A stretch of DNA of 32,000 nucleotides from Geotalea uraniireducens Rf4. Lineage in GTDB: Bacteria > Desulfobacterota > Desulfuromonadia > Geobacterales > Geobacteraceae. Below are positions 7,401 through 25,306 of the stretch, piece after piece. Positions within the stretch are counted from its first letter, which is position 1; each line of letters begins with the position of its first letter. The position numbers and the translations under genes are program-made. The notes under the pieces were generated by a model. It was not told the origin of the DNA. It made no database searches and was given only the letters and a program-made list of their open reading frames with translations. The DNA lies in contig NC_009483.1 in assembly GCF_000016745.1 (NCBI RefSeq), positions 1,800,001 through 1,832,000 of the forward strand, read 5' to 3'.

Positions 7401-7402
7401 AG

Positions 7403-10007: not shown

Positions 10008-10042
10008 ATGTAAAATTAATATTTGGGGAGGGTCGAACTAAG

Positions 10043-10516
10043 ATGAAAGATCCAGATGCAATGCAGTCAGGACTTCAACTGTTGGAGAGCGCGGAAGCAG
10101 CGTATCTTACTACCATTGACGGCGACGGTTTTCCCCAGACGCGGGCCATGTTGAATTTGAGGAATTCGGATCAGTTTCCCGCCTTGAGCAGGCTGTTCTC
10201 TGCGCTTGATGACAAGTTCGTCGTCTATTTCACCACCAATGCATCTTCAGCCAAAATCGAGCAGATCAGGAGAAATCCCAAGGTGTCGGTATACTATTCC
10301 ATACCGGCGGAATGGCGCGGATTGATGCTTGGCGGTGCTATGGAAATCGTCACCGACTCCTGCCTGAAAAAGGCGATCTGGCAGAAGGGGTGGGAAATGT
10401 ACTACCCCGGCGGGAACGATGATCCCGATTACGCGATACTTCGATTATCGCCGATGGTTGCCAAGTATTATCATCAGCTTGTTTCCTCTGTCTTCGATCT
10501 GGGGCAAAAATCATGA
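10043..10516 (+). CDS. Pyridoxamine 5'-phosphate oxidase-family (general stress protein 26-like) FMN-binding protein
   Basis: The track ORF starts at 9995 inside the promoter. The ATG at 10043 has GGGGAGGG upstream. The sequence AYLTTIDGDGFPQTRAM...VYFTTNASSAKIEQIRRNPKVSVYY is typical of the PNPOx-like split-barrel family. Confidence 0.8.
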   Translation: MKDPDAMQSGLQLLESAEAAYLTTIDGDGFPQTRAMLNLRNSDQFPALSRLFSALDDKFVVYFTTNASSAKIEQIRRNPKVSVYYSIPAEWRGLMLGGAMEIVTDSCLKKAIWQKGWEMYYPGGNDDPDYAILRLSPMVAKYYHQLVSSVFDLGQKS

Positions 10517-10986
10517 AAAACAGACGGCAAGGCGGCTTTCTGATTGCCAAGATACATCAGCTGGCCGGACGGATTTTTTCCCGTAAGCTGAAGAAATACG
10601 AGATCGCTGATATTAATCCTGCCCAGGGGAGAATCCTCTTTGTCCTTTGGGAGAACGACGGTATATCCATCCAGGAGCTGGCGGTAAAGACTTCGCTGGG
10701 GAAATCGACCTTGACGAGCATGCTGGACAGGCTTGAAGAAACCGGCCATCTAACCCGTGTCCCGTCCAGTGATGACCGACGAAAGATACTGATCAAGCTC
10801 ACGGAAAAGGATCGGGCTCTCCGGAACCAGTATGCACGGGTGTCCGAAGATATGACGGAACTGTTTTACAGCGGCTTTTCCGCCGCAGAAATAGACATGT
10901 TTGAGGGATTCTTGCAGCGGATCCTTGGCAATCTGCAAGGCTTTGAAACAAAGGAGCAGGCTTGCCGGCTCGATTCTGATAAATGA
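10513..10986 (+). CDS. MarR-family transcriptional regulator
   Basis: 157 aa. The winged-HTH core reads INPAQGRILFVLWENDGISIQELAVKTSLGKSTLTSMLDRLEETGHLTRVPSSDDRRKILIKLTEKDRAL. A 4-nt overlap (ATGA) with the upstream gene. Confidence 0.9.
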   Translation: MKNRRQGGFLIAKIHQLAGRIFSRKLKKYEIADINPAQGRILFVLWENDGISIQELAVKTSLGKSTLTSMLDRLEETGHLTRVPSSDDRRKILIKLTEKDRALRNQYARVSEDMTELFYSGFSAAEIDMFEGFLQRILGNLQGFETKEQACRLDSDK

Positions 10987-11009
10987 TGGAATAATCCATT
11001 TCAACACGC

Positions 11010-11723
11010 ATGAAGGGGCATTTCATGGCAGCTGGAAACGAAGATCGATTCACGGGGTTTTCGCAGAACGCGTCGGCCTTTCTGAGGAATCTCGCGGCGA
11101 ATAACAACAAGGCATGGTTCGAGGCGCATCGGCAAGAGTACGAGGAACACCTGCTGGAACCGCTCAAGACGCTGGTCTCCGATCTGTCCGGCTTCATGCT
11201 CTCCATCGACCCGGATTTCATGACCATCCCGGCGGTGGACAGGACCATCTCCAGGATCTACCGCGACACGAGGTTTTCCAAGGACAAATCCCCCTATAAA
11301 ACCACCGTCTGGATAACCTTTAAAAGACCGGTCAGGAACTGGCAGGATTCACCCTGCTATTTCCTGGAACTCGGCACCGATTCCTACCGTTTCGGCATGG
11401 GCTTTTACAGTGCCGCGAAGGATACCATGGATCGGCTGCGGGAGATTGTCGACAAGCGGCCGGCGGAGTTCCTGAAGGTGGTTTCCTTCTTTGCAAAGCA
11501 GGATGTCTTCGTGCTGGAGGGGGAAAAGTACAAAAAGATTTTGAAGGGCACTCTCCCGGCAGATCTTCAGGAGTGGTATCAAAGAAAGAACCTCTATCTG
11601 GTCTGCAACAGAGAGATTGATGAAACCCTTTACGGCAGGAGGCTGGTCGATGACCTGATCTCCGGTTTCGGCATTGTCGCCCCATTGTACCACTACCTTT
11701 GGAAGCTGAAGGCGGGTAAATGA
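11010..11723 (+). CDS. DUF2461 (TIGR02453) family protein
   Basis: 237 aa. Family-typical motifs are FLRNLAANNNKAWFEAHRQEYEEHL and ISRIYRDTRFSKDKSPYKT. The start may be the second ATG at 11025 (GAAGGGG upstream). The last 11 codons and the stop lie inside the left copy of the direct repeat. Confidence 0.85.
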   Translation: MKGHFMAAGNEDRFTGFSQNASAFLRNLAANNNKAWFEAHRQEYEEHLLEPLKTLVSDLSGFMLSIDPDFMTIPAVDRTISRIYRDTRFSKDKSPYKTTVWITFKRPVRNWQDSPCYFLELGTDSYRFGMGFYSAAKDTMDRLREIVDKRPAEFLKVVSFFAKQDVFVLEGEKYKKILKGTLPADLQEWYQRKNLYLVCNREIDETLYGRRLVDDLISGFGIVAPLYHYLWKLKAGK

Positions 11724-11726
11724 TGG
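11690..11726 (+). repeat. Left copy of a 37-bp direct repeat (25 bp perfect) covering the DUF2461 gene 3' end
   Basis: 11690-11714 (CCACTACCTTTGGAAGCTGAAGGCG) is identical to 25123-25147. The alignment extends to 34/37 identities through the shared TGA stop. Confidence 0.85.
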
Positions 11727-12034
11727 AGTTCCACGCCCGGCTGCGTGACCTGGCCGGCGATGTGGATCTGAACGGCCACCCGACCGACCGCCTCCCCAAT
11801 ACCCTCAACGTCAGCTTCCGCGGCGTGGTCGGGGCAGACCTCCTGGCACGGACCCCCGAGATCGCCGCCTCCACAGGTTCTGCCTGCCACGACGGCAGCG
11901 GCGAACTCTCGGGTGTGCTCAAGTCCATGGGGGTCTCCCGCGAACAGGGCTTCGGAGCGGTCCGTTTCAGCCTTGGCCGCCTCACTGCCACCACCGAGAT
12001 CGACAGGGCTCTGCGGGGGATGCGGAACGATTGA
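11720..12034 (+). pseudogene. 5'-truncated cysteine desulfurase (NifS/IscS class-V aminotransferase), C-terminal ~100 aa only
   Basis: The translation contains NGHPTDRLPNTLNVSF, the catalytic-cysteine loop AASTGSACHDGSGELSGVLKSMG, and GAVRFSLGRLTATTEID. About 280 N-terminal residues, including the PLP-lysine region, are missing. The fragment begins exactly at the end of the direct repeat. Confidence 0.75.
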
Positions 12035-12137
12035 AGGAGGAACTTGCCAGGCGGGACGTGCCGGTCGTCGCCGAGATCGGGGAGATTGTCGTCGACCCGG
12101 ACAGCCGTATCAAGATTGAGCCATAAGGCTGCGCGCC

Positions 12138-12912
12138 ATGGCGACTTCCCTGCTGCTCATCAATCTGTTCGTACTCGGTATGGCCGGTGGGTGTTTCTCC
12201 GGCCTTTTGGGGGTCGGCGGTGGCATTATCATGCTGCCGCTCCTCATAACGGTACCCCAGTTGGCAGGGTTTCCCATCGGTCTCCGGCCAGCGGTGGGGG
12301 TTACCATGCTTCTGAGCCTGACAGGTTCCATGTCGGGCATTTTGATCCATCGTAAATATCATGCCCTGGATCTGTCATTGGCCCTTGCTGTAGGTGGGAG
12401 TGCTGCTGTCGGGTCATTGGGAGGAGCGGTCTCCTCCCGCATGGTGAGTGAGCGGCTAATGGCGATACTGTTTGCCCTGATGGCGGTAACGAGCCTGTTG
12501 CTCCTGCTGCTTGCCGAGCCAAGCGGCCCGGAGATTGAAGGAAGCCCGCGCCCGACCCGGTATCCAGCCGCTGCCCTGCTGGGGGGTGGTGTCGGCTTCC
12601 TGGCTGGTATCATCGGCCAGGGGGGGCTTTCATCATCCTTCCCCGTTAATTCATGCGTTCAAGGTACCGGTCCGGACGGCAATCGGCACCAGCGCGGCGG
12701 TCGCTTTTTTGTCGGCACTTGCCGGATTCCTTGGTAAGGGAACCGGTCCGGTACCGCTCCTCTGGGGAATCGCCGTATCATTCGGGGCGCTCCTGGGAGG
12801 GCAGATGGGGGGCATGCTAAGCCACCGGCTATCGACCATCACGTTACGGCGAATCCTTTTCTTGGTTGTTGCAATCAGTGCTGTTCGGATTTTTGTGCAA
12901 GCTCTTTTGTAA
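12138..12912 (+). pseudogene. TauE/SafE (DUF81) sulfite-exporter-family permease, interrupted by a frameshift at a G7 run
   Basis: The ORFs at 12138..12737 and 12511..12912 are the two halves of one protein of about 258 aa. The first half has FSGLLGVGGGIIMLPLL; the second has PLIHAFKVPVRTAIGTSAAVAFLSALAGFLGK...LLGGQMGG. The reading frame changes at GGGGGGG (12620-12626). Removing one G gives a continuous ...GIIGQGGFHHPSPLIHAFKV... Confidence 0.75.
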
Positions 12913-13005
12913 GCCTGCTTAACCGGTCTGCTGCCAGGAGCGCGTAATAGACATGGGGGATAATATGACAAAGTAGAGATAAAGTTGACGTGCTTATAAA
13001 ATATC

Positions 13006-13035
13006 TTGACAAAATTGGTAGATAATATATATACT
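13006..13035 (+). promoter_or_regulatory. Sigma70-type promoter in the AT-rich spacer
   Basis: TTGACA (13006-13011), an 18-nt spacer, then TATACT (13030-13035). An alternative -10 is TATATA with a 16-nt spacer. Confidence 0.4.
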
Positions 13036-13040
13036 ACACT

Positions 13041-13165
13041 CTATAGACTTAGTATACTTTTAGAATCACTAATCAATATTGCTGGGCTGACCAGAAAAAC
13101 TGGAGGCCAGGTCTGATTGTTGGAGATATTCATTTCTCCGATGGTTGATCTGGCCTCTTTTTTTT
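13041..13165 (+). ncRNA. Candidate ~125-nt small transcript or attenuating leader, defined by the promoter at 13006 and the terminator at 13103-13165
   Basis: There is no plausible ORF or SD between the predicted +1 and the terminator. The unit lies 215 nt upstream of the first rhodanese gene. No known riboswitch consensus was recognised by eye. Confidence 0.3.
13103..13165 (+). terminator. Rho-independent terminator (long stem with an internal hairpin, followed by T8)
   Basis: GAGGCCAGGTC (13103-13113) pairs with GATCTGGCCTC (13147-13157), 11 bp including one G-U. An inner stem is formed by GGAGA (13122-13126) and TCTCC (13135-13139). TTTTTTTT follows at 13158-13165. Confidence 0.65.
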
Positions 13166-13380
13166 ATTCGGTTATCGGCAACAAGAGAGAAGAAAGTTAA
13201 ACACCGATGTGATGTTGCGGTAGAAGCTGACCAGGTGACTTGGAGGCTGATCTGAAATTATTTTAAAAAGGAGAAACAGCCTGAAATAGTTGAACGTAAA
13301 TGGGGAGCCAGGCACCCTGACTGTCTAGCAGAATAGACATTGTCAAAGTCAAAATAAATAGTTCGAAAGGAGAAACAAAT

Positions 13381-14550
13381 ATGAAACGCAGAGACATTTT
13401 TACAGTTCTGGGATTGTTACTTGTGGCTTTAACTACTGGGTCTTTGCTCTCGGGGTGCAACAGTTCATCGGCAACTGCTGCAACTGCCCCAACAGCGACC
13501 GCGCAATTGAGCGACTATTTCAAGTCAACGGATTGGGTGGCGCTGCATGCCAGCGATCAAAACTTCGTCATCGTTGATACCCGTCCGGCAGCCAAATACA
13601 ATGCCGGTCATATTCCCGGCGCAATCAACATACCGCGCGACCAGTTCTATTTCCCCAGGAAGGTCATCGACGCCGCAACCGGGTCCTACAAAGTCGATTC
13701 CAATGGGCAACCGGTGCAGATCGCATATGACATACCGACCCCGGCCGAATTGATCGACATCCTTACCAGGAACGGCATCACCCCCGATACGACCGTAGTG
13801 GCCTACGACAACGACACATCCTCCTATGGCGGCCGCGTGCCGTGGGTCCTGAAGAGCTACGGTCACGCCAAGGCCTACGTGATCGATGGCGGTATCGACA
13901 AGTGGAAGGATGTCGACGGCCGGACGCTCAGCACGACCGCCGTGATTCCGACTCCCAGCGCCAAACCGTATAAAATTACCAGCTACCAGAACCATCGTGT
14001 CACCAAAAGCGACCTTGCTGCGGTAATCGACACCGCCAACGGCAACGTCACCAAGGCCGGTTATGTGATCTCCGATGTCAGGACGCCCAGTGAATATACG
14101 GGGTTCGTAACCACGGTCACATCCGGCACTGCTTCCACGGGCGCCTGGACGCAAAACAGCACCCCCTTAGTTTACAGTACAAACCAGGGTGCACGTCCGG
14201 GACATATCCCCTATGCAAAGTTCAGCGATTATGAATCCGCCGTTTATACCGACTACATCAACCCGGCTACCGGCCAGCCGGTTGCTAGCACGCTTCAGCC
14301 GGGCAGAAATGTAAAAGTGCTCAAGAGCGCAGCAGAAATACAGGCACATTTTACAAGCCTGGGAATTACACCTGATAAAATCGTTTACAACCACTGCGAA
14401 GGCGGCTTCCGCTCCGGGGTCTACACGCTGATCCTGCTTGGCCTCGGCTATCCCAACGTCTACAACTACGACGGGTCATGGAACGAGTGGTCCATCCAAG
14501 GTGCGGCTTATCCGGTTGTGACCGGCGACGGCCGCGTCAGCGGACCATAA
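13381..14550 (+). CDS. Exported tandem-rhodanese sulfurtransferase, predicted lipoprotein
   Basis: 389 aa with SD AAAGGAG. Signal peptide with lipobox LLSG|C. The N-terminal rhodanese domain is inactive (VIVDTRPAAKYNAGHIPGAINIP...VVAYDND). The C-terminal domain is catalytic, with the loop HCEGGFRSG followed by YDGSWNEW. Confidence 0.9.
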   Translation: MKRRDIFTVLGLLLVALTTGSLLSGCNSSSATAATAPTATAQLSDYFKSTDWVALHASDQNFVIVDTRPAAKYNAGHIPGAINIPRDQFYFPRKVIDAATGSYKVDSNGQPVQIAYDIPTPAELIDILTRNGITPDTTVVAYDNDTSSYGGRVPWVLKSYGHAKAYVIDGGIDKWKDVDGRTLSTTAVIPTPSAKPYKITSYQNHRVTKSDLAAVIDTANGNVTKAGYVISDVRTPSEYTGFVTTVTSGTASTGAWTQNSTPLVYSTNQGARPGHIPYAKFSDYESAVYTDYINPATGQPVASTLQPGRNVKVLKSAAEIQAHFTSLGITPDKIVYNHCEGGFRSGVYTLILLGLGYPNVYNYDGSWNEWSIQGAAYPVVTGDGRVSGP

Positions 14551-14567
14551 GCCCAAAATAATAACAT

Positions 14568-14601
14568 GACGGGAGGGGCGATTGTTGTGCCGCCCCTCCC
14601 G
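14568..14601 (+). terminator. GC-rich intercistronic hairpin (possible terminator or RNA-stability element, no U-tract)
   Basis: ACGGGAGGGGCG (14568-14579) pairs perfectly with CGCCCCTCCCGT (14590-14601) around a 10-nt loop, 18 nt after the stop codon. Confidence 0.45.
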
Positions 14602-14806
14602 TAGTAAGTGAGTTTCAATCGTCATGCAGAAGTCAATGCTCTTTGAAAACTATTTATAAATACGATAGGTGTAATCTCTTTTAACGATTATTCCGATTTG
14701 ACTTTCAGTAAGTGAGTTTGTTACGGTGTCGCTTTTGATTTCGGCAAGTTGGCACTGAACATTGTTCCCCTTTGCGGGACTTATTTTACTGAAAGGAGCA
14801 GAATCC

Positions 14807-15772
14807 ATGAAAAGAGGAATCGTAATATCTTTCGTGGCGCTCATGGCGCTGGCAATAACGGTTTTGGCGGGGTGCGGCAGCAGTGTGACCGAGAAGACAC
14901 CGGCAGCTCCGGTAGCAAAAGCGTACAGTGACCCTACCATGGCTACAGACGCGGCAACCCTCAAAGCATCGCTCGGCAAAGCCGGGACTGTCATTATCGA
15001 TGCCAGGTCGGCTTCGGCATTTAGCGCAGGCCATATACCTGGAGCGATCAATGCCGTCTGGCAGTCCTTCGCTACGGTAGGAACCGGAGTTCCGGGAGAT
15101 GCAAACTGGGGAGTTTTGAAAACAGCTGCCGAAATCGGGATCGCACTTGGCAACCTGGGTATTGATGCATCTACGGAGGTTATCGTCTATGCAGATGCTC
15201 CCGGAGGCTGGGGAGAGGATGGCCGTATACTCTGGATGCTGCGCATGGCCGGCGTAACCAAGTCCAAGCTGCTCAATGGCGGATTGAATGGGTGGAAGGC
15301 GGCCGGCTACGGCCTCACCACGGCGGCAACGCCGGCGCCCGCACCGACAACATTGTCCATTGCATCATTTACAGGCGATTATGTCGTTGAAAAGGCCTGG
15401 ATTCTCGCCAACATGGCCGGAAGTGACGTCAAGATCATTGACGCCCGAGACCCGGAGGAGTTTGCAGGTGCTGTCAAGTATGGTGAAAAGCGTGGAGGTC
15501 ACTTGCCGGGCGCTATAAACATGCCTTTCAATACAGCCCTCTATACCAACAATCCAGCCAATCCAGGAATCATCAAGAGTCAGGATGAATTGGAGGCGCT
15601 CTTCACGGCTGCCGGAATCAAGAAGACGGATACCATTGTAAGCTACTGCACCAAGGGTATCCGTTCCGGCCTGATGACGATGATTCTGCGTATGGCAGGC
15701 TACAGCAAGGCGGTCAACTATGACGCGTCATTTTATGAATGGGCCGGCGACGCAACGCTCCCGGTTCAATAA
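14807..15772 (+). CDS. Exported tandem-rhodanese sulfurtransferase, predicted lipoprotein (paralog 2)
   Basis: The track ORF starts at 14762. The ATG at 14807 has GAAAGGAG upstream and yields MKRGIVISFVALMALAITVLAG|C, a classical lipobox. The N-domain is VIIDARSASAFSAGHIPGAIN...VIVYADAPGGWGEDG. The C-domain catalytic loop is YCTKGIRSG. Confidence 0.9.
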   Translation: MKRGIVISFVALMALAITVLAGCGSSVTEKTPAAPVAKAYSDPTMATDAATLKASLGKAGTVIIDARSASAFSAGHIPGAINAVWQSFATVGTGVPGDANWGVLKTAAEIGIALGNLGIDASTEVIVYADAPGGWGEDGRILWMLRMAGVTKSKLLNGGLNGWKAAGYGLTTAATPAPAPTTLSIASFTGDYVVEKAWILANMAGSDVKIIDARDPEEFAGAVKYGEKRGGHLPGAINMPFNTALYTNNPANPGIIKSQDELEALFTAAGIKKTDTIVSYCTKGIRSGLMTMILRMAGYSKAVNYDASFYEWAGDATLPVQ

Positions 15773-15813
15773 CAGATCATATTTACCAGGTTAATCAGAT
15801 GTATTGCCGTAAA

Positions 15814-15838
15814 GAGGGCGCCAAATATTGGCGCCCTC
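15814..15838 (+). terminator. GC-rich intercistronic hairpin (no U-tract)
   Basis: GAGGGCGCCAA (15814-15824) and TTGGCGCCCTC (15828-15838) form a perfect palindrome between the rhodanese-2 stop and the outer-membrane protein start. Confidence 0.4.
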
Positions 15839-15863
15839 CTTACTTCACCTTGAGGGGATTCTT

Positions 15864-16703
15864 ATGAAAAAACTTGTTCAATCATCAATTGTGGCCATTC
15901 TGTTTGTGACGGCATCCGCCACTGCCAGCCTGGCCGGCGCCTGGACCGCCAAACAGCATGCCTTCTACGAAAAGCTGGCCTTCAACTACTACTATTCCCA
16001 CGAGACCTTCGATTCGTCGGGCAACCGCAATGGGACGCCCAATAACGGGAAATTCACCGATTACGACATCTGCAATTACTTCGAGTATGGGCTGTTCGAC
16101 AACCTGACCGTGATCAACTCGCTGGCCTACAAGTGGCTGGAGAACGACAATAACTTGGCCCGCACCAAGGGTTACGGCCTGGGAGACGTGGACCTCGGGT
16201 TGCGCTACAAACTGCTGGACAGCGAGAAGATCGGCATCGTTGCCACGCAACTGCTCGTCAAGATTCCGGGGACATATGATAAAAAGGACCCGTTGCCGCT
16301 CGGCAACGGCCAGTTTGACACGGAAATCCGGCTGCTCTACGGCCGTTCGCTCTATCCGCTGATCCCCGGTTACGGCAACGTGGAGTTCGGCTACCGCTGG
16401 CGGGCCGAGGGCCCTTCCGACGAGATCCGCTATCTTGTTGAATTCGGCGTGGACGTTACCAGGGATTTTTACACCCGCGCCAAGCTGGACGGGACCCTCA
16501 GCGTGGATAACGGTAAAAAACTGGACGGCAGCGGCAACCCCACGGCTACCAACAACTTCGACCTCGGCAAGCTGGACCTGACCGTTGGTTACAAGGTTAC
16601 TCCGGCATGGGGGGTGGAGATCAGCTATCGGCCAGACATCTACGGACAAAATATCGCGGCCGGCGCGAATTATTCCCTTGCGCTCTATTTCAAGACACCA
16701 TAG
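15864..16703 (+). CDS. Outer-membrane beta-barrel channel (MetA/phenol-degradation-like transporter family)
   Basis: ATG at 15864. The signal peptide is MKKLVQSSIVAILFVTASATASLA|G. Alternating amphipathic strands are present (GLGDVDLGLRYKL, NVEFGYRW, LDLTVGYKV, GVEISYRP, and the C-terminal YSLALYFKTP). The size (about 255 aa mature) and motifs fit small substrate-channel barrels. Confidence 0.7.
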   Translation: MKKLVQSSIVAILFVTASATASLAGAWTAKQHAFYEKLAFNYYYSHETFDSSGNRNGTPNNGKFTDYDICNYFEYGLFDNLTVINSLAYKWLENDNNLARTKGYGLGDVDLGLRYKLLDSEKIGIVATQLLVKIPGTYDKKDPLPLGNGQFDTEIRLLYGRSLYPLIPGYGNVEFGYRWRAEGPSDEIRYLVEFGVDVTRDFYTRAKLDGTLSVDNGKKLDGSGNPTATNNFDLGKLDLTVGYKVTPAWGVEISYRPDIYGQNIAAGANYSLALYFKTP

Positions 16704-16724
16704 TTCTGCATTGTCAGATTCAAA

Positions 16725-16840
16725 GGCAAATCCCCCTCAATCCCCCTTTTGTAAAGGGGGAAGCATTTAGATCCCCCCTTTATGAAAAGGGGAAGCATTT
16801 AGATCCCCCCTTTATGAAAGGGGGGGAGGGGGGATTTGCC
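16725..16840. repeat. Array of three tandem 31-32-bp hairpin repeats enclosed by a 14-15-bp inverted repeat (REP/MITE-like element)
   Basis: The units are TCCCCCTTTTGTAAAGGGGGAAGCATTTAGA (16741-), TCCCCCCTTTATGAAAAGGGGAAGCATTTAGA (16772-) and TCCCCCCTTTATGAAAGGGGGGG (16804-). Each contains a C5-6TTT...AAAG4-7 stem. The flanks GGCAAATCCCCCTC (16725-16738) and GAGGGGGGATTTGCC (16826-16840) are reverse complements. Spurious translations give the PPF(V/M)KGG-type peptides often seen for such repeats. Confidence 0.85.
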
Positions 16841-16877
16841 GTTAAGGTCGCTAATCAAGAAAAAACAGGACATTACC

Positions 16878-18707
16878 ATGAGCATTATCACTAACAACCA
16901 TCTTCGCCCCGGTCTGCAAGAACAGATTGCCGCAACAAAATCGGGTTGCACCAATTGCGGCGAATGCGTCCGGGAGTGTGCCTTCCTCAAGAAATATGGC
17001 ACACCCAAATCTATTGCAGACAGCTTCGATGCAATTGATCCAAAATCCCTTGCTCGCTCCTTCGAGTGCAGCCTGTGCGGGCTCTGCTCGGTGGTCTGTC
17101 CGGAACAGCTCGATCTGGACGGACTGTTTCTGGAGATGCGGCGCGAGGCGGTGGACCGGGGCTTCGGGGACTACCCGGAGCATTCACCCCTGCTGACCTA
17201 CGAACGGCTGGGAACATCCCGCCGTTTCAGCCTGTACCGGTTGCCCCAAGGGTGCACGACGATCTTCTTCCCCGGCTGCTCCCTGTCCGGCACCCGCCCC
17301 GATGGCGTCAACAGGGTTTTCGCCGAGCTTCAGAAGACTGATCCAACCGTGGGTATCGTCTTTGACTGCTGTTTGAAGCCGTCCCATAGCCTGGGGCGCG
17401 AGCAGTACACTGGCGCCATGTTCGAGGAGATGAACAACTGGCTTGTGCAGCAGGGGGTGAAAGAGGTGCTGGTGGCATGCCCCAACTGCCAGGTGATGTT
17501 CACCTCGCTAGGCCAGGGGCTGAAGGTGAGAACCGTCTGGGAGTCCCTCGCCGAGTCCGGACTGCAGCCGGAAGGAGTGTCCGGTACGGTGACGGTTCAT
17601 GACCCCTGTGTTATCCGCGATGCACAACCGGTGCATCAGGCCGTGCGTACCCTGCTCAATCGCCAGGGACTGATGGTGGAGGAGATGCCCCATTCCGGCA
17701 GAACCACCGTCTGCTGCGGTCAGGGGGGGGCGGTCAACCTGCTGAACCCGCAACTGGCCGCTTCATGGGGAGAACTGCGCAAAAGAGAGGCGGCCGGCAG
17801 GAGAATCATCACCTACTGCGCCGGCTGTGTCCAGGCCCTGGGGGGGCACACGCCGACCAATCACCTGGTGGATATCCTGTTCGCCCCGAATCAGACCCTG
17901 GCCGGAAAGAAAAAGGGCGCCGGAGCCCCCTTTACCTATCTGAACCGGCTTCGACTCAAAAGAGCCTTTAAACGCAAGGAGGGATATGCAGTGACACGAG
18001 AACGAACATTTGTACCGGAACAGGGGCAGCCAAAGAAACGCTCCTGGAAACCGCTGATCTTTCTGGTCTTGCTGGTGGCAGCCGTCGCCGGCGTGCACCT
18101 GTCGGGAGCGGCCCAGTATCTTCAGCAGGAAAAATTGCAGGCATTGATTGCCTCGTACGGAGTCCTGGCCCCGGCTATTTACATCCTGCTTTATGCCCTG
18201 GCGCCGGTATTGTTCCTGCCCGGCCTGCCGATCACCATTGTGGGCGGTATTCTGTTCGGCCCGGTCTGGGGCGTGGTTTATACCATTACCGGCGCGACCA
18301 TCGGCGCCTCTCTGGCATTTCTGGTTGCGCGCTACGTGGCCCGCGACTGGGTGGCAGCCAAGTTGACCGGGCCCACGTGGGAAAAGCTCGACAGCGAAGT
18401 GGCCCAGCACGGCTGGAAGGTGGTGGCCTTCACACGACTGATTCCGGCCTTCCCCTTCAATCTGTTGAACTACGCCTTCGGACTGACCAAGGTCCCGTTT
18501 GTTCATTATATGGTTGCCACCTTTGTCTTCATGCTGCCTGCCTGCATCGCCTTCATCGTTTTCTCCAGCTCATTGCTGGGGCTGATCAAAGGCAAGGTTT
18601 CCCCGACGGCTCTGCTGGGCATCGGCCTGATTGTGCTGGTGTCGCTGATTCCGGTGGTCTACCGGCGCTTCAAGGGGCGTCAGGCGGCCGAGGCGGAAGC
18701 TGAGTGA
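16878..18707 (+). CDS. Fusion protein: 2x[4Fe-4S] ferredoxin motif + two CCG (HdrD/GlpC/LutA-like) cysteine-rich domains, fused to a C-terminal TVP38/TMEM64 (DedA-superfamily) membrane domain
   Basis: Start taken at the ATG at 16878; the track's TTG at 16836 is possible, and the SD is weak for both. Fe-S motifs: CTNCGECVREC and CSLCGLCSVVCP. CCG units: FFPGCS...FDCCLKP...ACPNC and HDPCV...VCCGQGG...YCAGC. From about residue 395 there are several TM helices with the TVP38/SNARE-associated signature LFLPGLPITIVGGILFGPVWGVVYTITGATIGASLAFLVARY...FTRLIPAFPFNLLNYAFGLT. Confidence 0.85.
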   Translation: MSIITNNHLRPGLQEQIAATKSGCTNCGECVRECAFLKKYGTPKSIADSFDAIDPKSLARSFECSLCGLCSVVCPEQLDLDGLFLEMRREAVDRGFGDYPEHSPLLTYERLGTSRRFSLYRLPQGCTTIFFPGCSLSGTRPDGVNRVFAELQKTDPTVGIVFDCCLKPSHSLGREQYTGAMFEEMNNWLVQQGVKEVLVACPNCQVMFTSLGQGLKVRTVWESLAESGLQPEGVSGTVTVHDPCVIRDAQPVHQAVRTLLNRQGLMVEEMPHSGRTTVCCGQGGAVNLLNPQLAASWGELRKREAAGRRIITYCAGCVQALGGHTPTNHLVDILFAPNQTLAGKKKGAGAPFTYLNRLRLKRAFKRKEGYAVTRERTFVPEQGQPKKRSWKPLIFLVLLVAAVAGVHLSGAAQYLQQEKLQALIASYGVLAPAIYILLYALAPVLFLPGLPITIVGGILFGPVWGVVYTITGATIGASLAFLVARYVARDWVAAKLTGPTWEKLDSEVAQHGWKVVAFTRLIPAFPFNLLNYAFGLTKVPFVHYMVATFVFMLPACIAFIVFSSSLLGLIKGKVSPTALLGIGLIVLVSLIPVVYRRFKGRQAAEAEAE

Positions 18708-19462
18708 TAGCGGCGCCCCCCGACATAGCTCTGATCATACCGGCCAGGAACGAGGAACTCTCCCTGCCGGGAGTGCTCGGGAATGTGCCGACTGAGATCA
18801 CGCGGGTTGTGGTGGTTGACAACGGATCGACAGACGCGACGGCACAGGTTGCCGCTGAATATGGCGCCCATGTCGTCACCGAACCGGTGGCCGGTTACGG
18901 CAGGGCCTGCCTGGCCGGATTGGCCTTTCTGCGGAACGATCCGCCGGACATCGTGGCTTTTGTCGATGCCGACGGCAGCGATGAGCTGTCGCGCCTGCCC
19001 GACCTGATCGCCCCGGTTTCCGTCGGAGAGCAGGAACTTGTGCTGGGGCGGCGGATTCCGGTTGTCACGGCGGCGCTTAGTTTTCAGCAGCGCTTCGGGC
19101 ACCTGCTGGCCACCGTGTTGATACGTCTGTTTTGGAGATACCGCTACAGAGACCTTGGTCCGATGCGGGTCATCAGTTGGATGGCGCTGAATCGGTTGAA
19201 TATGGCTGACCAAGCTTTCGGCTGGACGGTGGAAATGCAGGTCAGGGCACTCAAACATGGGCTGCGGATACGGGAGATTGACGTCCCTTATCATCAGCGC
19301 ACTGCCGGAAAGTCAAAGATCAGTCGGACGATCACCGGTACGGTCAAGGCCGGGAGCACTATTCTGTGGGTTATCGGCCGTGAATTGGTGCACGGGTTAC
19401 AGCATAAAAGACAAGAGGCAGCGGCAGCAGACACGGTTATTACTGCCGAGCAGGCACAATAA
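18704..19462 (+). CDS. Small GT-A fold family-2 glycosyltransferase, DPM1/GtrB/ArnC-like (candidate polyprenyl-phosphate sugar synthase)
   Basis: 252 aa with a GTG start overlapping the upstream stop (GTGA). Motifs: ALIIPARNEE, VVVVDNGSTDAT, GYGRACLAG, FVDADGSD, DLGPMRVISW and EIDVPYHQRTAGKSKIS. No TM segments are evident. Confidence 0.8.
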   Translation: MIAAPPDIALIIPARNEELSLPGVLGNVPTEITRVVVVDNGSTDATAQVAAEYGAHVVTEPVAGYGRACLAGLAFLRNDPPDIVAFVDADGSDELSRLPDLIAPVSVGEQELVLGRRIPVVTAALSFQQRFGHLLATVLIRLFWRYRYRDLGPMRVISWMALNRLNMADQAFGWTVEMQVRALKHGLRIREIDVPYHQRTAGKSKISRTITGTVKAGSTILWVIGRELVHGLQHKRQEAAAADTVITAEQAQ

Positions 19463-19476
19463 AGGAGAATAACGCC

Positions 19477-20367
19477 ATGCAGATTATTGCAAAGTTTATA
19501 CAGCAGGCAAAACGAGCCGGTTTACATCATGTAATCATGGTTTTATTGATGGTAGTAACGGTAATCGTTTCCTGTTTCTCGGCTGCCACGGCGGCCGATC
19601 TGAGACTGATCGATGCAGCTGCGTTGAAGGGTAATTCAGCAAAATGGGTCATACTTGATGCCCGTCCCAAGGCCGACTGGGAAACCGGCCACATTCCGGG
19701 AGCCATCCAGTTTTCATGGGACAATTATACCCGCACCGACGCCAAGGGGGTAAAGTACAGCTCTTTTCCACCCCAGGAACTGGCCGTAGCACTGGCCGGA
19801 CTGGGGATTGACGAAAAGACCCCGGTAGTGGTGTACGGGGACGCCGACAAGAGCTGGGGCGGCGAAGGGTATAATATCTGGTTGCTTTCCTGGCTTGGTC
19901 ACAAGGGACCCATCCGGCTGCTGAATGGCGGCATCCAGGCCTGGCGCAACCAGAATTTGCCTCTGGCCAAGGGGCCGGAAAAGCCTGCCGCCAAAAAGGC
20001 CCGTTACCAGGTGGATCTCAAGCCCCCGTACATCGTCTCCACGGAAGAGGTGCAGAAGGGAAAAGGTTCTTTTGTGCTGGTTGATGTCCGCTCGACCTTT
20101 GAATGGATCAAAGGCAGGATACCCGGCGCCATTCATATACCCTGGGAGGATTTTTACACCGGCAAGGATCACCACCCGCTTCCTCCGGCGGAACTGAAAA
20201 AGCTGCTTGCCAAGCATGGCGTGGATACCTCCAAACCGGTGGTTTATTACTGCCTGGGCGGGGTGCGCTCTGCCTACGCCTGGACGGCCCACCAGTTGGC
20301 AGGGCTGCCTGAAGCCCGCAACTACAAGGGAAGCTGGGCAGCCTGGGAGAAGCGGGCGGGGCAGTAA
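19477..20367 (+). CDS. Exported tandem-rhodanese sulfurtransferase (paralog 3; signal anchor or lipoprotein)
   Basis: 296 aa with SD AAGGAG. Hydrophobic N-terminus VIMVLLMVVTVIVS|C (lipobox-like IVSC), followed by FSAATA. The N-domain is VILDARPKADWETGHIPGAIQF...VVVYGDADKSWGGEG. The C-domain catalytic loop is YCLGGVRSA, followed by YKGSWAAWE. Confidence 0.9.
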   Translation: MQIIAKFIQQAKRAGLHHVIMVLLMVVTVIVSCFSAATAADLRLIDAAALKGNSAKWVILDARPKADWETGHIPGAIQFSWDNYTRTDAKGVKYSSFPPQELAVALAGLGIDEKTPVVVYGDADKSWGGEGYNIWLLSWLGHKGPIRLLNGGIQAWRNQNLPLAKGPEKPAAKKARYQVDLKPPYIVSTEEVQKGKGSFVLVDVRSTFEWIKGRIPGAIHIPWEDFYTGKDHHPLPPAELKKLLAKHGVDTSKPVVYYCLGGVRSAYAWTAHQLAGLPEARNYKGSWAAWEKRAGQ

Positions 20368-20385
20368 TTTGAATGTATGATTTTC

Positions 20386-20464
20386 GTAGGGGCGATCCCT
20401 TGTGGTCGCCCGATTTTGACGTCGGTGGTGCTGCCAGCAGGGCGGGCACAAGACCCGCCCCTAC
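20386..20464. repeat. REP-like composite palindromic element
   Basis: The outer arms GTAGGGGCG (20386-20394) and CGCCCCTAC (20456-20464) enclose two internal hairpins, GGCGATC-CCTTGT-GGTCGCC and GGGCGGG-CACAAGA-CCCGCCC. This GTAGGGGCGA...GGCACAAGACC..CCCCTAC sequence type is a familiar extragenic repeat in several bacterial phyla. Confidence 0.55.
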
Positions 20465-20476
20465 AGGAACGCTGAA

Positions 20477-20992
20477 ATGAGTTTTTTAATATGTCGAATC
20501 GCACACTGCCTGATACTGTCTGCCCTGCTGCTTGCTCTGTCAGTCATGGCATGTCATGCAGTCGAATCCAGGTCAAAAACGCCAACGTCCAGCGCCAAAA
20601 AGAAGCTGCTGCTGTTCGCCAAGAATCCTGCCACCTGGGCCATTGTCAAGGGGGGCGCCAGCGGCAAGATGGTCTACCGCGAGTCATCCGGCGCCTTCAG
20701 CCTGAGTGCTGCCGGCCTCCGCCCCCGTTCGGCCTACGCCATGATAAGGTACGCCGATGCTCCTCCAAAAGCCGAGATTCTCGCCCGGGGAGAGAGTGAT
20801 GTTCGCGGCAATCTGGAACTGAACGGAGTCTGGCGAAACTGGACCAGAAAGTTCTGGCTTGTGTCGGGCGAGGATGTGGTGGGCTTGCCCGGTGAAGCCG
20901 GTTCGCTCCGCGCCTGGCGGCCGGAACGCTATCTTTTCGAGGAAAAACAGATCGGCATACCCTGCCAATGCCCCGAACCAGAGGAACCTTAA
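20477..20992 (+). CDS. Exported hypothetical protein (signal peptide, possible lipobox VMA|C), no recognised family
   Basis: 171 aa. The N-terminus is CLILSALLLALSVMAC. The mature part is rich in beta-type alternation, and the C-terminus has CQCPEPEEP. Its stop overlaps the start of the radical SAM gene (TAATG), and the coding-like composition continues through that junction. Confidence 0.6.
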   Translation: MSFLICRIAHCLILSALLLALSVMACHAVESRSKTPTSSAKKKLLLFAKNPATWAIVKGGASGKMVYRESSGAFSLSAAGLRPRSAYAMIRYADAPPKAEILARGESDVRGNLELNGVWRNWTRKFWLVSGEDVVGLPGEAGSLRAWRPERYLFEEKQIGIPCQCPEPEEP

Positions 20993-22017
20993 TGACAGCA
21001 ATGTTCAAAAAGAAAGTCGAGGCGGTGGATGACCGCTTCACCACATTCCATAGACTGGAAACGCTCCAGGTGAATCTGGGCGATCTCTGCAACCTGAGTT
21101 GCGCCCACTGTCATCATCATGCCTCGCCGCAAGGCGCCCGGATCATGGGCCGGGACGTCATGGAAAAGATCACTGCGTTCCTGGCGCGGCATCCCGGTCT
21201 GACGCTGGACATAACCGGCGGCTGCCCGGAAATGAACCCGGACTTCCGGTACTTCGTCGAGGCATCGGCAGGACACGCCGCACGTCGCATCATCCGCAGC
21301 AATCTGGCCATTGCCCTTGAACCCGGCATGGAATGGCTGCCTGACTTTTATCGCGAACAGGCGCTGGTGGTGATGGCGTCGCTTCCCTGCTACGAAGCGG
21401 AGAACGTGGAGAAACAGAGGGGAGGCGGGGTCTTCATGCAAAGTATCGAGGTGTTGCGGCGCCTCAATCGGCAGGGCTATGGCAGCGAACTGGAACTCCA
21501 CCTCGTCCATAACCCGGGCAACGGCTCCGTGTCCGGATCACGTGATATGCTGGAGCAGCATTACCGTACGGAACTTCTACAGCGTTTTGGTGTCAGCTTC
21601 AGTCGGCTCCACTGCATGAACAATACCCCCATCGGACGTTTTCGGGACAACCTGGAGCGCAGGGGAACCTATCAGCGCTATATCGAGCATCTGGCGGAAA
21701 AATTCAATCCGCTGGCCACAGAGCAAATCATGTGCCGAACGCTGGTCAGTGTCGGCTGGGATGGGGTGCTATACAACTGCGACTTCAATCTGGCTGCCGC
21801 ATTGCCGTTGCAACGGGCGGATGGCTCGCTCGTGACCATCGACCATGCCGACGAGGCGATTGTCCCCGGCAGCGGAATCCGGATGGCTGCGCACTGTTTC
21901 AGTTGCACCGCCGGCGAGGGTTCGGGGTGCGGCGGGTCATTGGCTGCATCCGGCAACAAGGTATATGGATCAGCGAACAGCAATGATCAGGGCGTGAGCG
22001 CATGCTGTCAGCAATAA
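20992..22017 (+). CDS. arsS: ArsS-family radical SAM/Cys-rich domain protein (TIGR04167, rSAM/selenodomain family), Cys form
   Basis: The ATG at 20992 (GAGGAA upstream) is preferred over the track start at 20968. Radical SAM motif LQVNLGDLCNLSCAHCHH. Family-typical blocks: LDITGGCPEMNPDFRYFV, SLPCYEAENVEKQRGGGVF, YGSELELHLVHNP, MCRTLVSVGWDGVLYNCDFN. The C-terminal motif HCFSCTAGEGSGCGG has TGC (21928-21930) at the position that is Sec in some members. Confidence 0.8.
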   Translation: MTAMFKKKVEAVDDRFTTFHRLETLQVNLGDLCNLSCAHCHHHASPQGARIMGRDVMEKITAFLARHPGLTLDITGGCPEMNPDFRYFVEASAGHAARRIIRSNLAIALEPGMEWLPDFYREQALVVMASLPCYEAENVEKQRGGGVFMQSIEVLRRLNRQGYGSELELHLVHNPGNGSVSGSRDMLEQHYRTELLQRFGVSFSRLHCMNNTPIGRFRDNLERRGTYQRYIEHLAEKFNPLATEQIMCRTLVSVGWDGVLYNCDFNLAAALPLQRADGSLVTIDHADEAIVPGSGIRMAAHCFSCTAGEGSGCGGSLAASGNKVYGSANSNDQGVSACCQQ

Positions 22018-23480
22018 TACCGGTCCTGACCGCTATCCATTTTGCCGCGCTGCTCGGCCTCTGCCTGTACGGGGTGCACCGGCTCTGGCTGATTTATTGC
22101 CTGTACATGCCAAAAGGAAGCGAGAGGTCGACCCCGGCCCCTTTTGCCGCACCCGAAGAGTTCCCATCGGTCACTGTACAACTGCCGCTTTACAACGAGC
22201 GCTTTGTGGCGGAACGCCTGCTGGATGCCGCAGCCGGTCTTGACTGGCCCCGTGAGCGGCTCGAAATCCAGGTGCTGGACGATTCGGACGACGACACCTG
22301 CCGGCTGGTGGACCAGCGGGCTGCCTGGTGGCGGAAGCAGGGTGTCGCCATCACCGTGGTGAGAAGAACCAGCCGCGACGGCTACAAGGCAGGGGCGCTT
22401 GCCAACGGCCTTGCAACGGCACATGGTGAATACATAGCCGTCTTTGATGCCGACTTCATCCCGCCGCCCGATTTTCTGCATGCCACCATGCCATGGTTCA
22501 GAAATCAGGACGTCGGCATGGTCCAGACCCGCTGGAGCTTCTGCAATGCCGACCACTCCTGGTTCACCGGCATCCAGTCCCTCCTGCTCGGTCCGCATTT
22601 CAGCATCGAACACCGTGTGCGCTACCGGCAGGGGTTGTTCTTCAACTTCAACGGCACCGCCGGTGTCTGGCGCAGGAGCGCCATTGAGTCTGCCGGCGGC
22701 TGGCAGTCCGACACGGTCACCGAAGACCTGGATCTGAGCTACCGTGCACAGTTGGCCGGATGGCGCTTTGTCTATCGCGAAGAGTGCCAGGTGCCGTCCG
22801 AGCTGCCGGTGACCATGGCTGCACTGCGCAGCCAGCAGCAGCGCTGGGCCAAGGGTTCCATCCAGACCGCCCGCAAGATTCTGCCGCGGTTGTTGCAGGA
22901 GCGCTTGCCGCCGGCCGTAAAGATCGAGGCAATGGCCCATCTGATGGCCAATATCTACTGGCTTCTGGGCATGATCGTCATGCTGACCCTCTATCCGGCA
23001 GTTACCTGGCGGGTCGGCATCGGCCTGCACCAGGTCCTGCGCATCGATCTGCCGCTCTTCCTGGCCACCAGCGGGGCGATCATGAGCTACTTCCTGCTCT
23101 ATTCCATCCGCAGCGGATCGAAGAGCCTGCTGCGGCATGTTGTGCTGCTGCCCGCCCTGACCATCGGGTTGGCCCCCAGCATCTCCCTTTCAGTGCTGAA
23201 GGGGTTGTTTCGCCCGGGCGGTGAGTTCGAGCGGACACCCAAATTCGGTGTGCGGGGACGTGAACGGATTCCGGGGCTGGCCTTCCTCTATCATCAGAAA
23301 AACCTTCCCTACATCTTCATGAACGGCGTGCTGTTCCTCTACTGCCTGCTGCCGGTAATCTTCGCCTGGCAGCGGGAAACCTGGTTCGCCGTGCCCCTGT
23401 TCCTGCTTTTTCCGTTCGGTTTTGCATTGGTACTGGCAAAAGATATCAGGGAATCGTTATTTTCGGCAAACTTGAGATAA
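22002..23480 (+). CDS. Integral-membrane family-2 glycosyltransferase with D,D,D,QxxRW signature (cellulose-synthase/glycolipid-synthase-like)
   Basis: 492 aa with an N-terminal TM. Motifs: VQLPLYNE, QVLDDSDD, AVFDADF, TEDLDLSYR and LRSQQQRWAKGS. Several C-terminal TM helices are present. A 16-nt overlap with the radical SAM gene. Confidence 0.85.
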   Translation: MLSAIIPVLTAIHFAALLGLCLYGVHRLWLIYCLYMPKGSERSTPAPFAAPEEFPSVTVQLPLYNERFVAERLLDAAAGLDWPRERLEIQVLDDSDDDTCRLVDQRAAWWRKQGVAITVVRRTSRDGYKAGALANGLATAHGEYIAVFDADFIPPPDFLHATMPWFRNQDVGMVQTRWSFCNADHSWFTGIQSLLLGPHFSIEHRVRYRQGLFFNFNGTAGVWRRSAIESAGGWQSDTVTEDLDLSYRAQLAGWRFVYREECQVPSELPVTMAALRSQQQRWAKGSIQTARKILPRLLQERLPPAVKIEAMAHLMANIYWLLGMIVMLTLYPAVTWRVGIGLHQVLRIDLPLFLATSGAIMSYFLLYSIRSGSKSLLRHVVLLPALTIGLAPSISLSVLKGLFRPGGEFERTPKFGVRGRERIPGLAFLYHQKNLPYIFMNGVLFLYCLLPVIFAWQRETWFAVPLFLLFPFGFALVLAKDIRESLFSANLR

Positions 23481-23534
23481 CAGACATGATAACCGGTTCT
23501 AAGTGCAATGCAGTTGCAACCTTGAGGGGAAATA

Positions 23535-25067
23535 TTACTGACCGGGTTCTGCAGTTGGCTGCCGAGCACCGCTGAGAGCCCTGCTGAGAAGGTATGCCGT
23601 TAGCGGCGCCAGGAAGACCGCTGCCGTCACCTGCGGATTCTCGGTCCACTGCCCCAGGATGAAATAGGGGATCTGAACCTGGTACGTCAGGAAGACCGCC
23701 CAACAGAGTACCAGTCCGGCCGGACCTGCGCAGAACGGCAGAAATACCGCCAGGCAGAGGGCGTACCATGGTTGCAGGGTCGGGGTAAGCAGCAATAGCG
23801 CCATGGCGATGGCATAACAGGCTTCCATCGCCTGACGTAATCTGTTGACCGGTGATAGTCCGTGATTGATGCTGCCGGCCAAACGGAGAATGATTCCGAC
23901 GGCAACCAGCAGAAAACAGGATGACAACAGCAGGCGGGCAATCGTTCCCGAGCCGGTCATGGTACGAAGCGTGTTGAAGGCAAAACCGGCAAATTCCCAA
24001 TTGCGGGCATAGGCATCCAGGCTGGCGGTCATGTTGACCAAGTGCGGCAGGAACGGCAACACGAGTGCTGCCAGAGTCGCGATAAATCCGGCTGCAAAAT
24101 GTCTGCGTCGCTCATTCGGGACCAGCAGAAACAGTACCGGCGTCAACACCAGGGGAAACAGCTTCACCAAGCCGGCGCAGGCCAGCAACGCTCCGGACAA
24201 CAGAAACGGCCACCGCCGCGGAGCCGTCGCAGAAGCGCTCTGCCGATCCATTGCAAGCAGGCAGAAGGAACCTATCAGCATGGCAAGACCTGCTCCGTCC
24301 ACGTGCCCAGACCCGGCGATCTCCAGCACCGGCAGTGGATTCCATGCATAGAGTACAGCCCGCCATGCCGGCATCTCAAGCCGCTTCAACAGCATAACCA
24401 ACAGGGCGCACAGTCCCAGGTCGAGCAGCGCCAGAAAAGCCTTGAGGCCTGTGATGGTTCCACCAGTCGCTGCTCCCCCGGCAAACACCAACTGGGCCGT
24501 TGGTGGGTAAATGGTGACATAATCCGGGTGATTGATCATTGAGTGAACGGCTTTCAGTCCGGGCAGCGGCGTTATGACGGATGGCGAAGCGGCATAGGGA
24601 TTGACTCCCCGCAGCAGGTTACTGCCATCCCACAGGTAGCGGTAGATGTCATCGGACAGTTGCGGCGGACTGAACAGGAACAACAGGCGCAACACGAGCC
24701 CCACAGCAAGGATGACGGCCGGCGACCAAAGGACCTTTGCGCGCTCTCCGCAATAGAGGGCAAGCGTCAACAGCGTCGCCATCAATGCCGTGACGCCAAT
24801 CAGCAGCGGCACCGCCAGGCGTAACTCCGGCTGAACAGCAAGTATGCCACAGGAGGAGATCAGGAAGACAGGAAGTGCTACCGTAACAATATTTCCTGCA
24901 AGAGCCGTAATCGTTAGGTTTTTTTTGGCTGTAGCCATGACCGTCACGTATTTCCTAATCGTATTCAGCAGTTCTTGGCGTCTGTCCGTTACAATCGGTC
25001 TCAGCCAGGCCACCGGTTCATTCAAAGTCTTTCCTGAAACAAACAAAAAGTCAAGAATTACAGTCAA
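23535..25067 (-). CDS. Polytopic GT-C-type membrane glycosyltransferase (DUF2029/GT87/mannosyltransferase-like)
   Basis: 510-aa ORF with more than 10 predicted TM helices. The first periplasmic loop carries SDDIYRYLWDGSNLLRGVNPYA, and further on YPPTAQ and WNPLPVLEIAGSGHVDG. These are typical of polyprenyl-phosphate-sugar-dependent GT-C enzymes. The start is uncertain: TTG at 25067 or ATG at 24938. Confidence 0.7.
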   Translation of the reverse strand: MTVILDFLFVSGKTLNEPVAWLRPIVTDRRQELLNTIRKYVTVMATAKKNLTITALAGNIVTVALPVFLISSCGILAVQPELRLAVPLLIGVTALMATLLTLALYCGERAKVLWSPAVILAVGLVLRLLFLFSPPQLSDDIYRYLWDGSNLLRGVNPYAASPSVITPLPGLKAVHSMINHPDYVTIYPPTAQLVFAGGAATGGTITGLKAFLALLDLGLCALLVMLLKRLEMPAWRAVLYAWNPLPVLEIAGSGHVDGAGLAMLIGSFCLLAMDRQSASATAPRRWPFLLSGALLACAGLVKLFPLVLTPVLFLLVPNERRRHFAAGFIATLAALVLPFLPHLVNMTASLDAYARNWEFAGFAFNTLRTMTGSGTIARLLLSSCFLLVAVGIILRLAGSINHGLSPVNRLRQAMEACYAIAMALLLLTPTLQPWYALCLAVFLPFCAGPAGLVLCWAVFLTYQVQIPYFILGQWTENPQVTAAVFLAPLTAYLLSRALSGARQPTAEPGQ

Positions 25068-25122
25068 CGCCTTTTCATGGTGGCATGGCGTCTTCGATCT
25101 GAGATAAAAATCATGAAAAACT

Positions 25123-25159
25123 CCACTACCTTTGGAAGCTGAAGGCGTGTGAATGACGG
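25123..25159 (+). repeat. Right copy of the 37-bp direct repeat (relic 3' end of a DUF2461 gene)
   Basis: 25123-25147 is identical to 11690-11714. In the same frame it reads HYLWKLKACE-TGA, against HYLWKLKAGK-TGA at the left copy. It lies in the intergenic region between the divergent GT-C and 4Fe-4S genes. Confidence 0.85.
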
Positions 25160-25306
25160 TTCGACAGGCGATTCAACGGAATACGGCAGCAAGGTAATTT
25201 TTTCTTTCGCCGGAGTTGGCGATGTGCTGTGTTGAAGGTACACTTGTTCCAGGGCATCTCATTCCTGAGAGCATAATCAGCCACGTCCACGATCGAAAGG
25301 TCCGCC

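Follow-up and report, generated by a model that had tools for sequence, protein, structure and literature searches.

The chromosome of Geotalea uraniireducens Rf4 contains, within a stretch of 32,000 nucleotides (NC_009483.1, positions 1,800,001 to 1,832,000 of the forward strand; here called the window, whose numbering is used throughout), a 13.4-kb gene block between a DUF2461 gene and a 4Fe-4S protein gene (25307-26602). This block, referred to below as the island, occupies 13,363 bp (11727-25089). It is preceded by an intact 1,237-bp segment (H, 10490-11726) that comprises the tail of a PNPOx-like gene, a MarR gene and the DUF2461 gene, and is followed by a relic of 70 bp (H', 25090-25159) made up of the left and right ends of the same segment, with order and orientation kept (Table 1).

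The window contains exactly two copies of the 25-mer CCACTACCTTTGGAAGCTGAAGGCG, both on the plus strand, starting at 11690 and at 25123, and a match of this kind arose in none of 100 dinucleotide-preserving shuffles. It constitutes the perfect first 25 nt of a 37-bp repeat (11690-11726 versus 25123-25159, 34/37 identical) that extends through the TGA. The left copy encodes the C-terminus of the DUF2461 protein (HYLWKLKAGK-stop), and the right copy is an orphan (HYLWKLKACE-stop, with another stop codon eight codons upstream) located between the 4Fe-4S gene and a divergent GT87 gene (minus strand, 23535-24938). An exact look-up of the 237-residue DUF2461 product retrieved no such protein, probably because a different start has been assigned to the gene in the records. 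The original prediction, which described this pair and took the left copy for the functional gene end and the right copy for a relic, is correct on these points but incomplete, having overlooked a second repeat that abuts the right copy on its left. Detected by a repeat finder and by pairwise BLAST, this 32-bp repeat (25090-25121 versus 10490-10521, 29/32 identical) was considered as a chance match and ruled out as such, the number of matches of such quality expected in the window being approximately 5e-10. Its left copy consists of the last eight codons of the PNPOx-like gene, an ATGA stop/start overlap and codons 1-3 of the MarR gene.

The relic thus carries both ends of the 1,237-bp MarR-DUF2461 segment as two pieces joined via a single T (25122), the middle 1,168 bp being absent. 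Because two non-adjacent pieces in the same order and orientation stand 1 nt apart, for which there is no other explanation, and because both pieces lie within coding sequence in a full copy of the segment, the relic must, to judge from its sequence, be an internally deleted derivative of a second MarR-DUF2461 copy, and not an insertion site or att core.

The left joint is of a different kind. Three bases past the stop codon of the DUF2461 gene, which is left intact, the sequence enters the middle of a nifS-like gene, of which a remnant persists (positions 290-370 of the 371 of Pfam model Aminotran_5, and 274-366 of the 379 of NCBIfam model NifS); homology of this remnant to full-length NifS relatives starts at FHARL (nucleotide 11729). 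At most 1-3 G residues could be shared as microhomology at this joint, a number that can be read only with the donor sequence. Near the other end of the island, homology to other copies of the gene cluster described next extends only to some 20 bp upstream of where the GT87 gene starts.

The island contains, in order, two rhodanese genes, a gene for a 291-residue protein of unassigned function, a Fer4/CCG/DedA (DedA-VTT) fusion gene, a GT2 glycosyltransferase gene, a third rhodanese gene, a conserved gene for a 171-residue protein likewise of unassigned function, an ArsS-type radical SAM gene (TIGR04167, 382 bits versus a cut-off of 300), a second GT2 gene and the gene for a GT87/MptB-like membrane glycosyltransferase. 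The content originally predicted, namely rhodanese, ArsS-like and glycosyltransferase genes, decay of the leftmost genes and absence of an integrase or transposase, agrees with Pfam and NCBIfam scans. The same cluster was found in Geobacteraceae, Desulfuromonadaceae, Gallionella, Thiothrix, Sulfuricellaceae, Nitrospinota and Syntrophobacteraceae, always at other loci. It occupies at least five other genomic contexts, often beside genes for a sulfate ABC transporter, CysE, TusA or DsrE, and among the cluster loci fetched none has a MarR, DUF2461, PNPOx or 4Fe-4S gene beside it, except copies of this strain. The cargo is a conserved chromosomal operon of housekeeping type.

Table 1. Positions of the island, its borders and the repeated segment in the window.
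Feature	Position	Strand	Basis or remark
H, intact left copy of the duplicated segment, 1,237 bp (PNPOx-like tail, MarR, DUF2461 plus 3 bp)	10490-11726	+	Pfam; both ends repeated at 25090-25159; collinear with L043 and L001
32-bp repeat, left copy	10490-10521	+	29/32 to 25090-25121; identical in L043 and L001
MarR gene	10513-10986	+	Pfam
DUF2461 gene	11010-11723	+	Pfam PF09365, E=2.8e-57
3' part of DUF2461 of apparently differing ancestry, tract reaching the left joint	11301-11726	+	switch clearest over 11601-11726
37-bp repeat, left copy	11690-11726	+	37/37 to the single copy in empty-site strain L002
Left joint and 5'-truncated remnant of a nifS/IscS-like cysteine desulfurase gene, last ~100 residues	11727-12034	+	Pfam Aminotran_5; NCBIfam NifS
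Frameshifted tauE/safE-like gene	12138-12912	+	Pfam TauE positions 1-153 of 237, frame then lost
Intact cargo operon	13381-24938	GT87 on -	Pfam/NCBIfam; same cluster at other loci elsewhere
131 bp of unassigned origin, from GT87 start region to relic	24959-25089		matches nothing in any fetched locus
Relic part 1, PNPOx tail and MarR start	25090-25121	+	29/32 to 10490-10521
Single T at the apparent internal deletion junction of the relic (1,168 bp gone relative to the left copy)	25122	+	alignment
Relic part 2, orphan DUF2461 tail	25123-25159	+	34/37 to 11690-11726
First ~55 bp of the right flank, apparently of foreign ancestry (putative right recombination arm), with the putative crossover just beyond	25160-25214	+	comparison with L043 and L002

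Empty sites and ancestry of the flanks

Three related metagenomic strains, two located through homologues of the DUF2461 protein (L001 and L002) and one through the MarR protein (L043), have the arrangement that the original prediction had proposed to look for in relatives, with the 4Fe-4S gene immediately downstream of the DUF2461 gene, and each has the 37-mer in a single copy. Downstream, all three continue with the 4Fe-4S, GAPDH-like, histidine kinase and response regulator genes in the order of the right flank of the window. L043, in which the full order is TonB receptor, PNPOx, MarR, DUF2461 and 4Fe-4S, is collinear with window positions 513-11726 at 98.2% identity and resumes at position 25123. 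Over the right flank the window is 98.9% identical to L043 (97.0% over the first 1.4 kb), 95.9% identical to L001 and 94.1% identical to L002, and the latter two are 94.7% identical to each other; at the protein level, the flanking genes are 92-99% identical in the empty-site strains. A single gain on the branch leading to this strain is the parsimonious reading, because the nearest relative and both outgroups are without the insert. The island had been described as possibly old, which is at odds with its absence from a strain that is 98-99% identical.

An assembly artefact that joined unrelated contigs is virtually inconceivable here: short shared sequences such as these repeats can mislead assemblers, but both junctions are found at 100% identity in independent assemblies of two other sequencing runs (the right junction in contigs L004 and L005, the left junction in L042), and the sequence appears to belong to a finished chromosome of 5.1 Mb.

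Of 69 positions compared between the relic and the left copy, 6 differ (8.7%), and the probability of at least six differences at 2% divergence is 0.003. The three that fall in the 32-bp part of the relic occur nowhere else, the left copy of the window, L043 and L001 being mutually identical there. Because the relic is diverged to this extent while the insert-free L043 is only about 1-2% diverged, it is best read as foreign DNA that arrived together with the island rather than as a copy that drifted in place.

The flanks of the island show abrupt changes of affinity. To the right, the window and L043 differ at 13 positions within 92 bp (25123-25214) and at one position within the following 952 bp (25215-26166; p=1e-13). 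Over 25160-25214 the window is closer to L002 (4/55 differences) than to L043 (10/55), and in the next 70 bp, from 25215 on, it is identical to L043 and differs from L002 at 17/70 positions. L043 itself differs from each of L001 and L002 at 9/55 positions in the 55 bp to the right of the site, the same distance as in the next 70 bp, and because it keeps this equal distance on both sides of 25215, the window is apparently the recombinant. To the left, the DUF2461 gene differs from that of L043 at 3 of 323 positions over 10978-11300 and at 10 of 126 over 11601-11726 (Fisher p=3e-4); the corresponding counts against L002 are 23/323 and 2/126 (p=0.02). By these counts, the last part of the DUF2461 gene, like the ~90 bp with which the right flank begins, apparently differs in ancestry from its surroundings. 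Polymorphisms of putative donor type run from the insert into the flank and stop at the presumed crossover; the sites concerned are few.

The same comparison bears on the polarity of the change. It is unlikely that the arrangement H-island-H' is ancestral and that L043, L001 and L002 each lost the island through the repeats or imported an empty allele. Recombination between two full copies of H would indeed restore a perfect empty site, divergent tracts would look alike had L043 imported its empty allele, and deletions are frequent nearby (L001 is without window positions 2537-4313 and 4526-10463, and L002 is without the PNPOx and MarR genes). Two or three independent and precise losses would nevertheless be required in place of one gain; L043 looks native at the site (9/55), whereas it is the window that switches affinity (from 4/55 to 17/70 against L002); and the origin of the composite relic would be left unexplained, only the timing of events being changed.

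Proposed mode of acquisition

Islands inserted by integrases into the 3' ends of tRNA or protein genes, as well as integrative and conjugative elements and prophages, leave the target gene intact but with its 3' end duplicated as a direct repeat, and have empty sites in relatives; all of these features are found here. The original prediction saw in the repeat the signature of an element that had entered the 3' end of the DUF2461 gene and brought a replacement end with it. Such an element would have used the gene end as attB and carried a 37-bp attP core, and its integrase would later have been lost, leaving it fixed. The perfect first 25 nt of the repeat, the single copy of the 37-mer in the three empty-site strains and the L002-like right-hand part of the left copy, as expected of a gene end supplied by an element, are all in keeping with this history, which we nonetheless regard as quite unlikely. 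The bases adjoining the repeat argue against it: on the right, the repeat combines two stretches that lie apart in the MarR-DUF2461 segment, and the arm of an attP has no reason to hold the PNPOx/MarR junction of the host from 1.2 kb upstream of the target; on the left, the supposed element ends in a gene that has been cut in its middle. Arms specific to an element were seen at neither side, and the 55 bp that follow the right copy, which should be native, are not.

Gene content likewise speaks against an integrase-type element. No recombinase gene was found in the island or in the rest of the 32-kb window by Pfam and NCBIfam scans, for which the left flank was also covered through the Pfam matches of L042, and the scanned open reading frames included no excisionase, transfer or replication gene or remnant. 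There is no tRNA gene in the window, an Rfam scan was also empty, and the repeat finder detected no flanking inverted repeats. The island matches no plasmid or phage, and its cargo is of housekeeping type. The 24-mer of the repeat is absent from 2.9 million viral contigs; an exact-pattern search of JGI metagenomes with it also gave no matches and missed L043, which differs by one base. The 25-mer has no matches among GTDB species representatives, from which the chromosome of this strain itself seems to be absent or masked; a scan for GT87 did not recover this strain either. In the collections searched there is accordingly no instance of repeated use of the 37-bp site, or of the same element, in other genomes, plasmids or phages.

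A compositional difference from the flanks had been put forward as a further mark of a foreign island. The GC content is 0.571 in the island and 0.564 in the flanks, the ranges of GC at third codon positions (GC3) overlap, and the island is no tetranucleotide outlier, so that by this measure composition speaks against a foreign island; the absence of a difference fits a donor within the same family.

The other suggestion of the original prediction, a cassette acquired by recombination, fits the data best. We consider it probable that the 13.4-kb cluster was gained recently on this lineage by homologous and illegitimate recombination, without an integrase, and that the repeat is the scar of this event. 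The ancestral order would have been TonB receptor, PNPOx, MarR, DUF2461 and 4Fe-4S, as in L043. The donor may have been a diverged strain from the same species complex, with the operon lying next to the donor's own MarR-DUF2461 segment. This homologous segment, together with its adjoining flank, would have served as the right recombination arm, with one crossover, and on the left an illegitimate break inside the nifS-like gene would have fused the cluster to the DUF2461 gene end, either through a single crossover of a circular molecule or through homology-facilitated illegitimate recombination (HFIR) of a linear one. The resulting structure, H-island-H', would have contained a direct duplication of 1.24 kb, of which H' would then have lost the central 1,168 bp, in the donor or later, leaving the 70-bp relic. 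Such a loss would also have removed a long repeat otherwise able to delete the island. The finished package may have formed in another lineage, because foreign tracts flank the insert and resemble an allele that is contiguous in L002; it would then have entered by two homologous crossovers, at approximately 11.3-11.6 kb and approximately 25.2 kb.

Several observations weigh against this account. The arrangement expected of a donor, with the island beside an intact MarR-DUF2461 segment or between two full copies of it, was found in no collection, close relatives being thinly sampled, and the cluster is present in 0 of 77 MarR loci. The closest other copy of the cluster is 82-88% identical at the protein level. 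The ancestry tracts are based on few sites (10/126 and 13/92), an 8-bp cluster of L043-specific changes could be a single mutational event, and part of the signal could stem from recombination in L043 rather than in this strain. Position 35 of the 37-mer carries conflicting signals, and the deletion junction of the relic is without microhomology. Finally, the searchable part of the chromosome is this window, and an intragenomic source is possible.

The last point, along with the indistinguishable composition of island and flanks and the frequent deletions and rearrangements in the neighbourhood, would suit an internal rearrangement: either a tandem duplication of the MarR-DUF2461 segment or a move of the cluster within the chromosome, followed by decay of the second copy in place. 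This is distinctly improbable: a relic that is 8.7% diverged shows too much decay for an insert absent from a strain only 1-2% diverged, the switches of ancestry in the flanks point to foreign DNA, and insertion exactly at the joint of a tandem duplication would be an additional coincidence.

Acquisition by recombination of this sort is a well-known process, and the present case is ordinary but documented unusually cleanly. In conjugation experiments with E. coli, single crossovers of circular molecules produced duplications of 109-950 bp of the homologous locus (PMC3240628), and the duplication at the island appears, by analogy, to be the same footprint. In Campbell-type insertion-duplication and HFIR, as observed in naturally transformable bacteria and in E. 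coli conjugation (PMC3240628), there is, as proposed for the island, one homologous arm while the other end is joined non-homologously (here inside a gene), a copy of the homologous segment comes to lie at either side of the insert, and the process does without a dedicated recombinase. Unlike those experiments, the island represents a natural event of 13.4 kb that is reconstructed from sequence; one copy of its duplication has since been cut to 70 bp, and it has foreign tracts in both flanks, so that a later transfer by double crossover would have been superimposed.

A second class of comparison is provided by capsule and O-antigen loci, where strain-specific cassettes are exchanged by homologous recombination in conserved flanking genes. 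For the effector-immunity modules of the Vibrio cholerae type VI secretion system, displacement is reported to leave orphan remnants (PMC5361080). Cassette exchange resembles the island in that cargo lies between conserved neighbours, different strains have alternative states at one site, recombination tracts end in flanking genes and orphan fragments remain. The island differs in that its alternative state is empty and its orphan is a deleted copy of an upstream two-gene segment, not displaced cargo. From integrase-mediated islands, integrative and conjugative elements and prophages it differs in having no recombinase or mobility gene and no compositional signal, in its composite repeat, in the truncated gene at one end and in its conserved chromosomal operon.

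A more general possibility is that the region from the 3' end of the DUF2461 gene to the intergenic region at the 4Fe-4S gene is a recurrent, recombinase-independent hotspot of this species complex, where the MarR-DUF2461 segment would act as a portable homology arm shuttling conserved metabolic operons between strains, this one perhaps making an uncharacterised sulfur- or selenium-containing glycoconjugate. As a whole this is very improbable; it stays open because all four strains compared differ structurally around the locus.

Neighbouring genes and the cargo cluster

The structure of the region upstream of the DUF2461 gene differs in every strain compared. The first of the two stretches missing from L001 lies within a PAS-rich sensor gene (2418-4916) that carries 858-bp internal repeats, and the second leaves only the last 53 bp of the PNPOx gene (L001 9110-9437). 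The stretch missing from L002 corresponds to window positions 10050-10977. In the window, the PNPOx-like and MarR genes (9995-10986) have a GC content of 0.49-0.51 and a GC3 of 0.58-0.60, below their neighbours (about 0.57-0.61), and the PNPOx gene is 92% identical to its L043 counterpart, versus 98-99% for adjacent genes. The pairing of PNPOx and MarR is widely conserved: of the metagenomic loci with MarR that were fetched, more than 50 have it.

Downstream, L043 has 227 extra bp (L043 12657-12907) where the 4Fe-4S and GAPDH-like genes converge (window 26167-26960), and the same region contains a cluster of approximately 70 substitutions that set L043 apart from the others, apparently a recombination tract of that strain alone. 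The GAPDH-like gene (26683-28128) encodes a protein of 481 residues whose NAD-binding domain begins only at residue 132, after an N-terminal extension of about 130 residues, and the length of 481 residues is conserved in L001, L002 and L043.

Of the two decayed genes at the left edge of the island, the nifS-like remnant was considered as a possible conserved stand-alone small protein, on account of short matches on long contigs; this was rejected, as these proved to be split gene calls of full-length genes. Its closest full-length relatives (L040 5248-7460) adjoin a SelD-like (AIRS domain) gene and a methyltransferase gene, a gene neighbourhood which hints that the lost gene may have served the mobilisation of selenium or sulfur. 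Apart from a frameshift at a G run (approximately 12621-12628), the tauE/safE-like gene is complete; beyond the run the remainder continues in the frame of the open reading frame 12511-12912; the C-terminal part was recognized by eye, and not by a Pfam scan. The gene could have become a pseudogene recently, the sequence could contain an error at this point, or the tract could be prone to slippage.

Two intergenic regions of the island have further features. The AT-rich gap upstream of the first rhodanese gene (13006-13170) contains a near-consensus sigma-70 promoter (TTGACA, 18 nt, TATACT; 11/12), followed after approximately 70 nt by a 24-bp hairpin and a U run. The hairpin has a fold z-score of -5.4, and the element matches no Rfam family; its features make it a candidate small RNA of about 125 nt or an attenuating leader. 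Between the genes for the 291-residue protein and the Fer4/CCG/DedA fusion (16722-16843) there are nested palindromic tandem units of 32 nt (CCCCCTTT..AAAGGGGG..), which look like an intergenic element of the repetitive extragenic palindromic (REP) type.

A survey of the literature on genomic islands of this species and on the ArsS-type cluster yielded nothing specific to this locus. The product of the cluster may be a sulfur- or selenium-containing glycoconjugate, which is a guess. The cluster is conserved across iron- and sulfur-cycling lineages and is perhaps a more interesting object than its insertion in this strain.

For the annotation of such loci, the practical warning is that an integrase-type element should not be assumed solely because a direct repeat duplicates a gene end on its 3' side. 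If acquired as proposed, the island would be a natural example of a whole metabolic operon gained without the machinery of mobile elements, in which both the footprint of the event and the empty site are preserved, and as such it could be useful for the study of gene flow in Geobacter-type subsurface bacteria.

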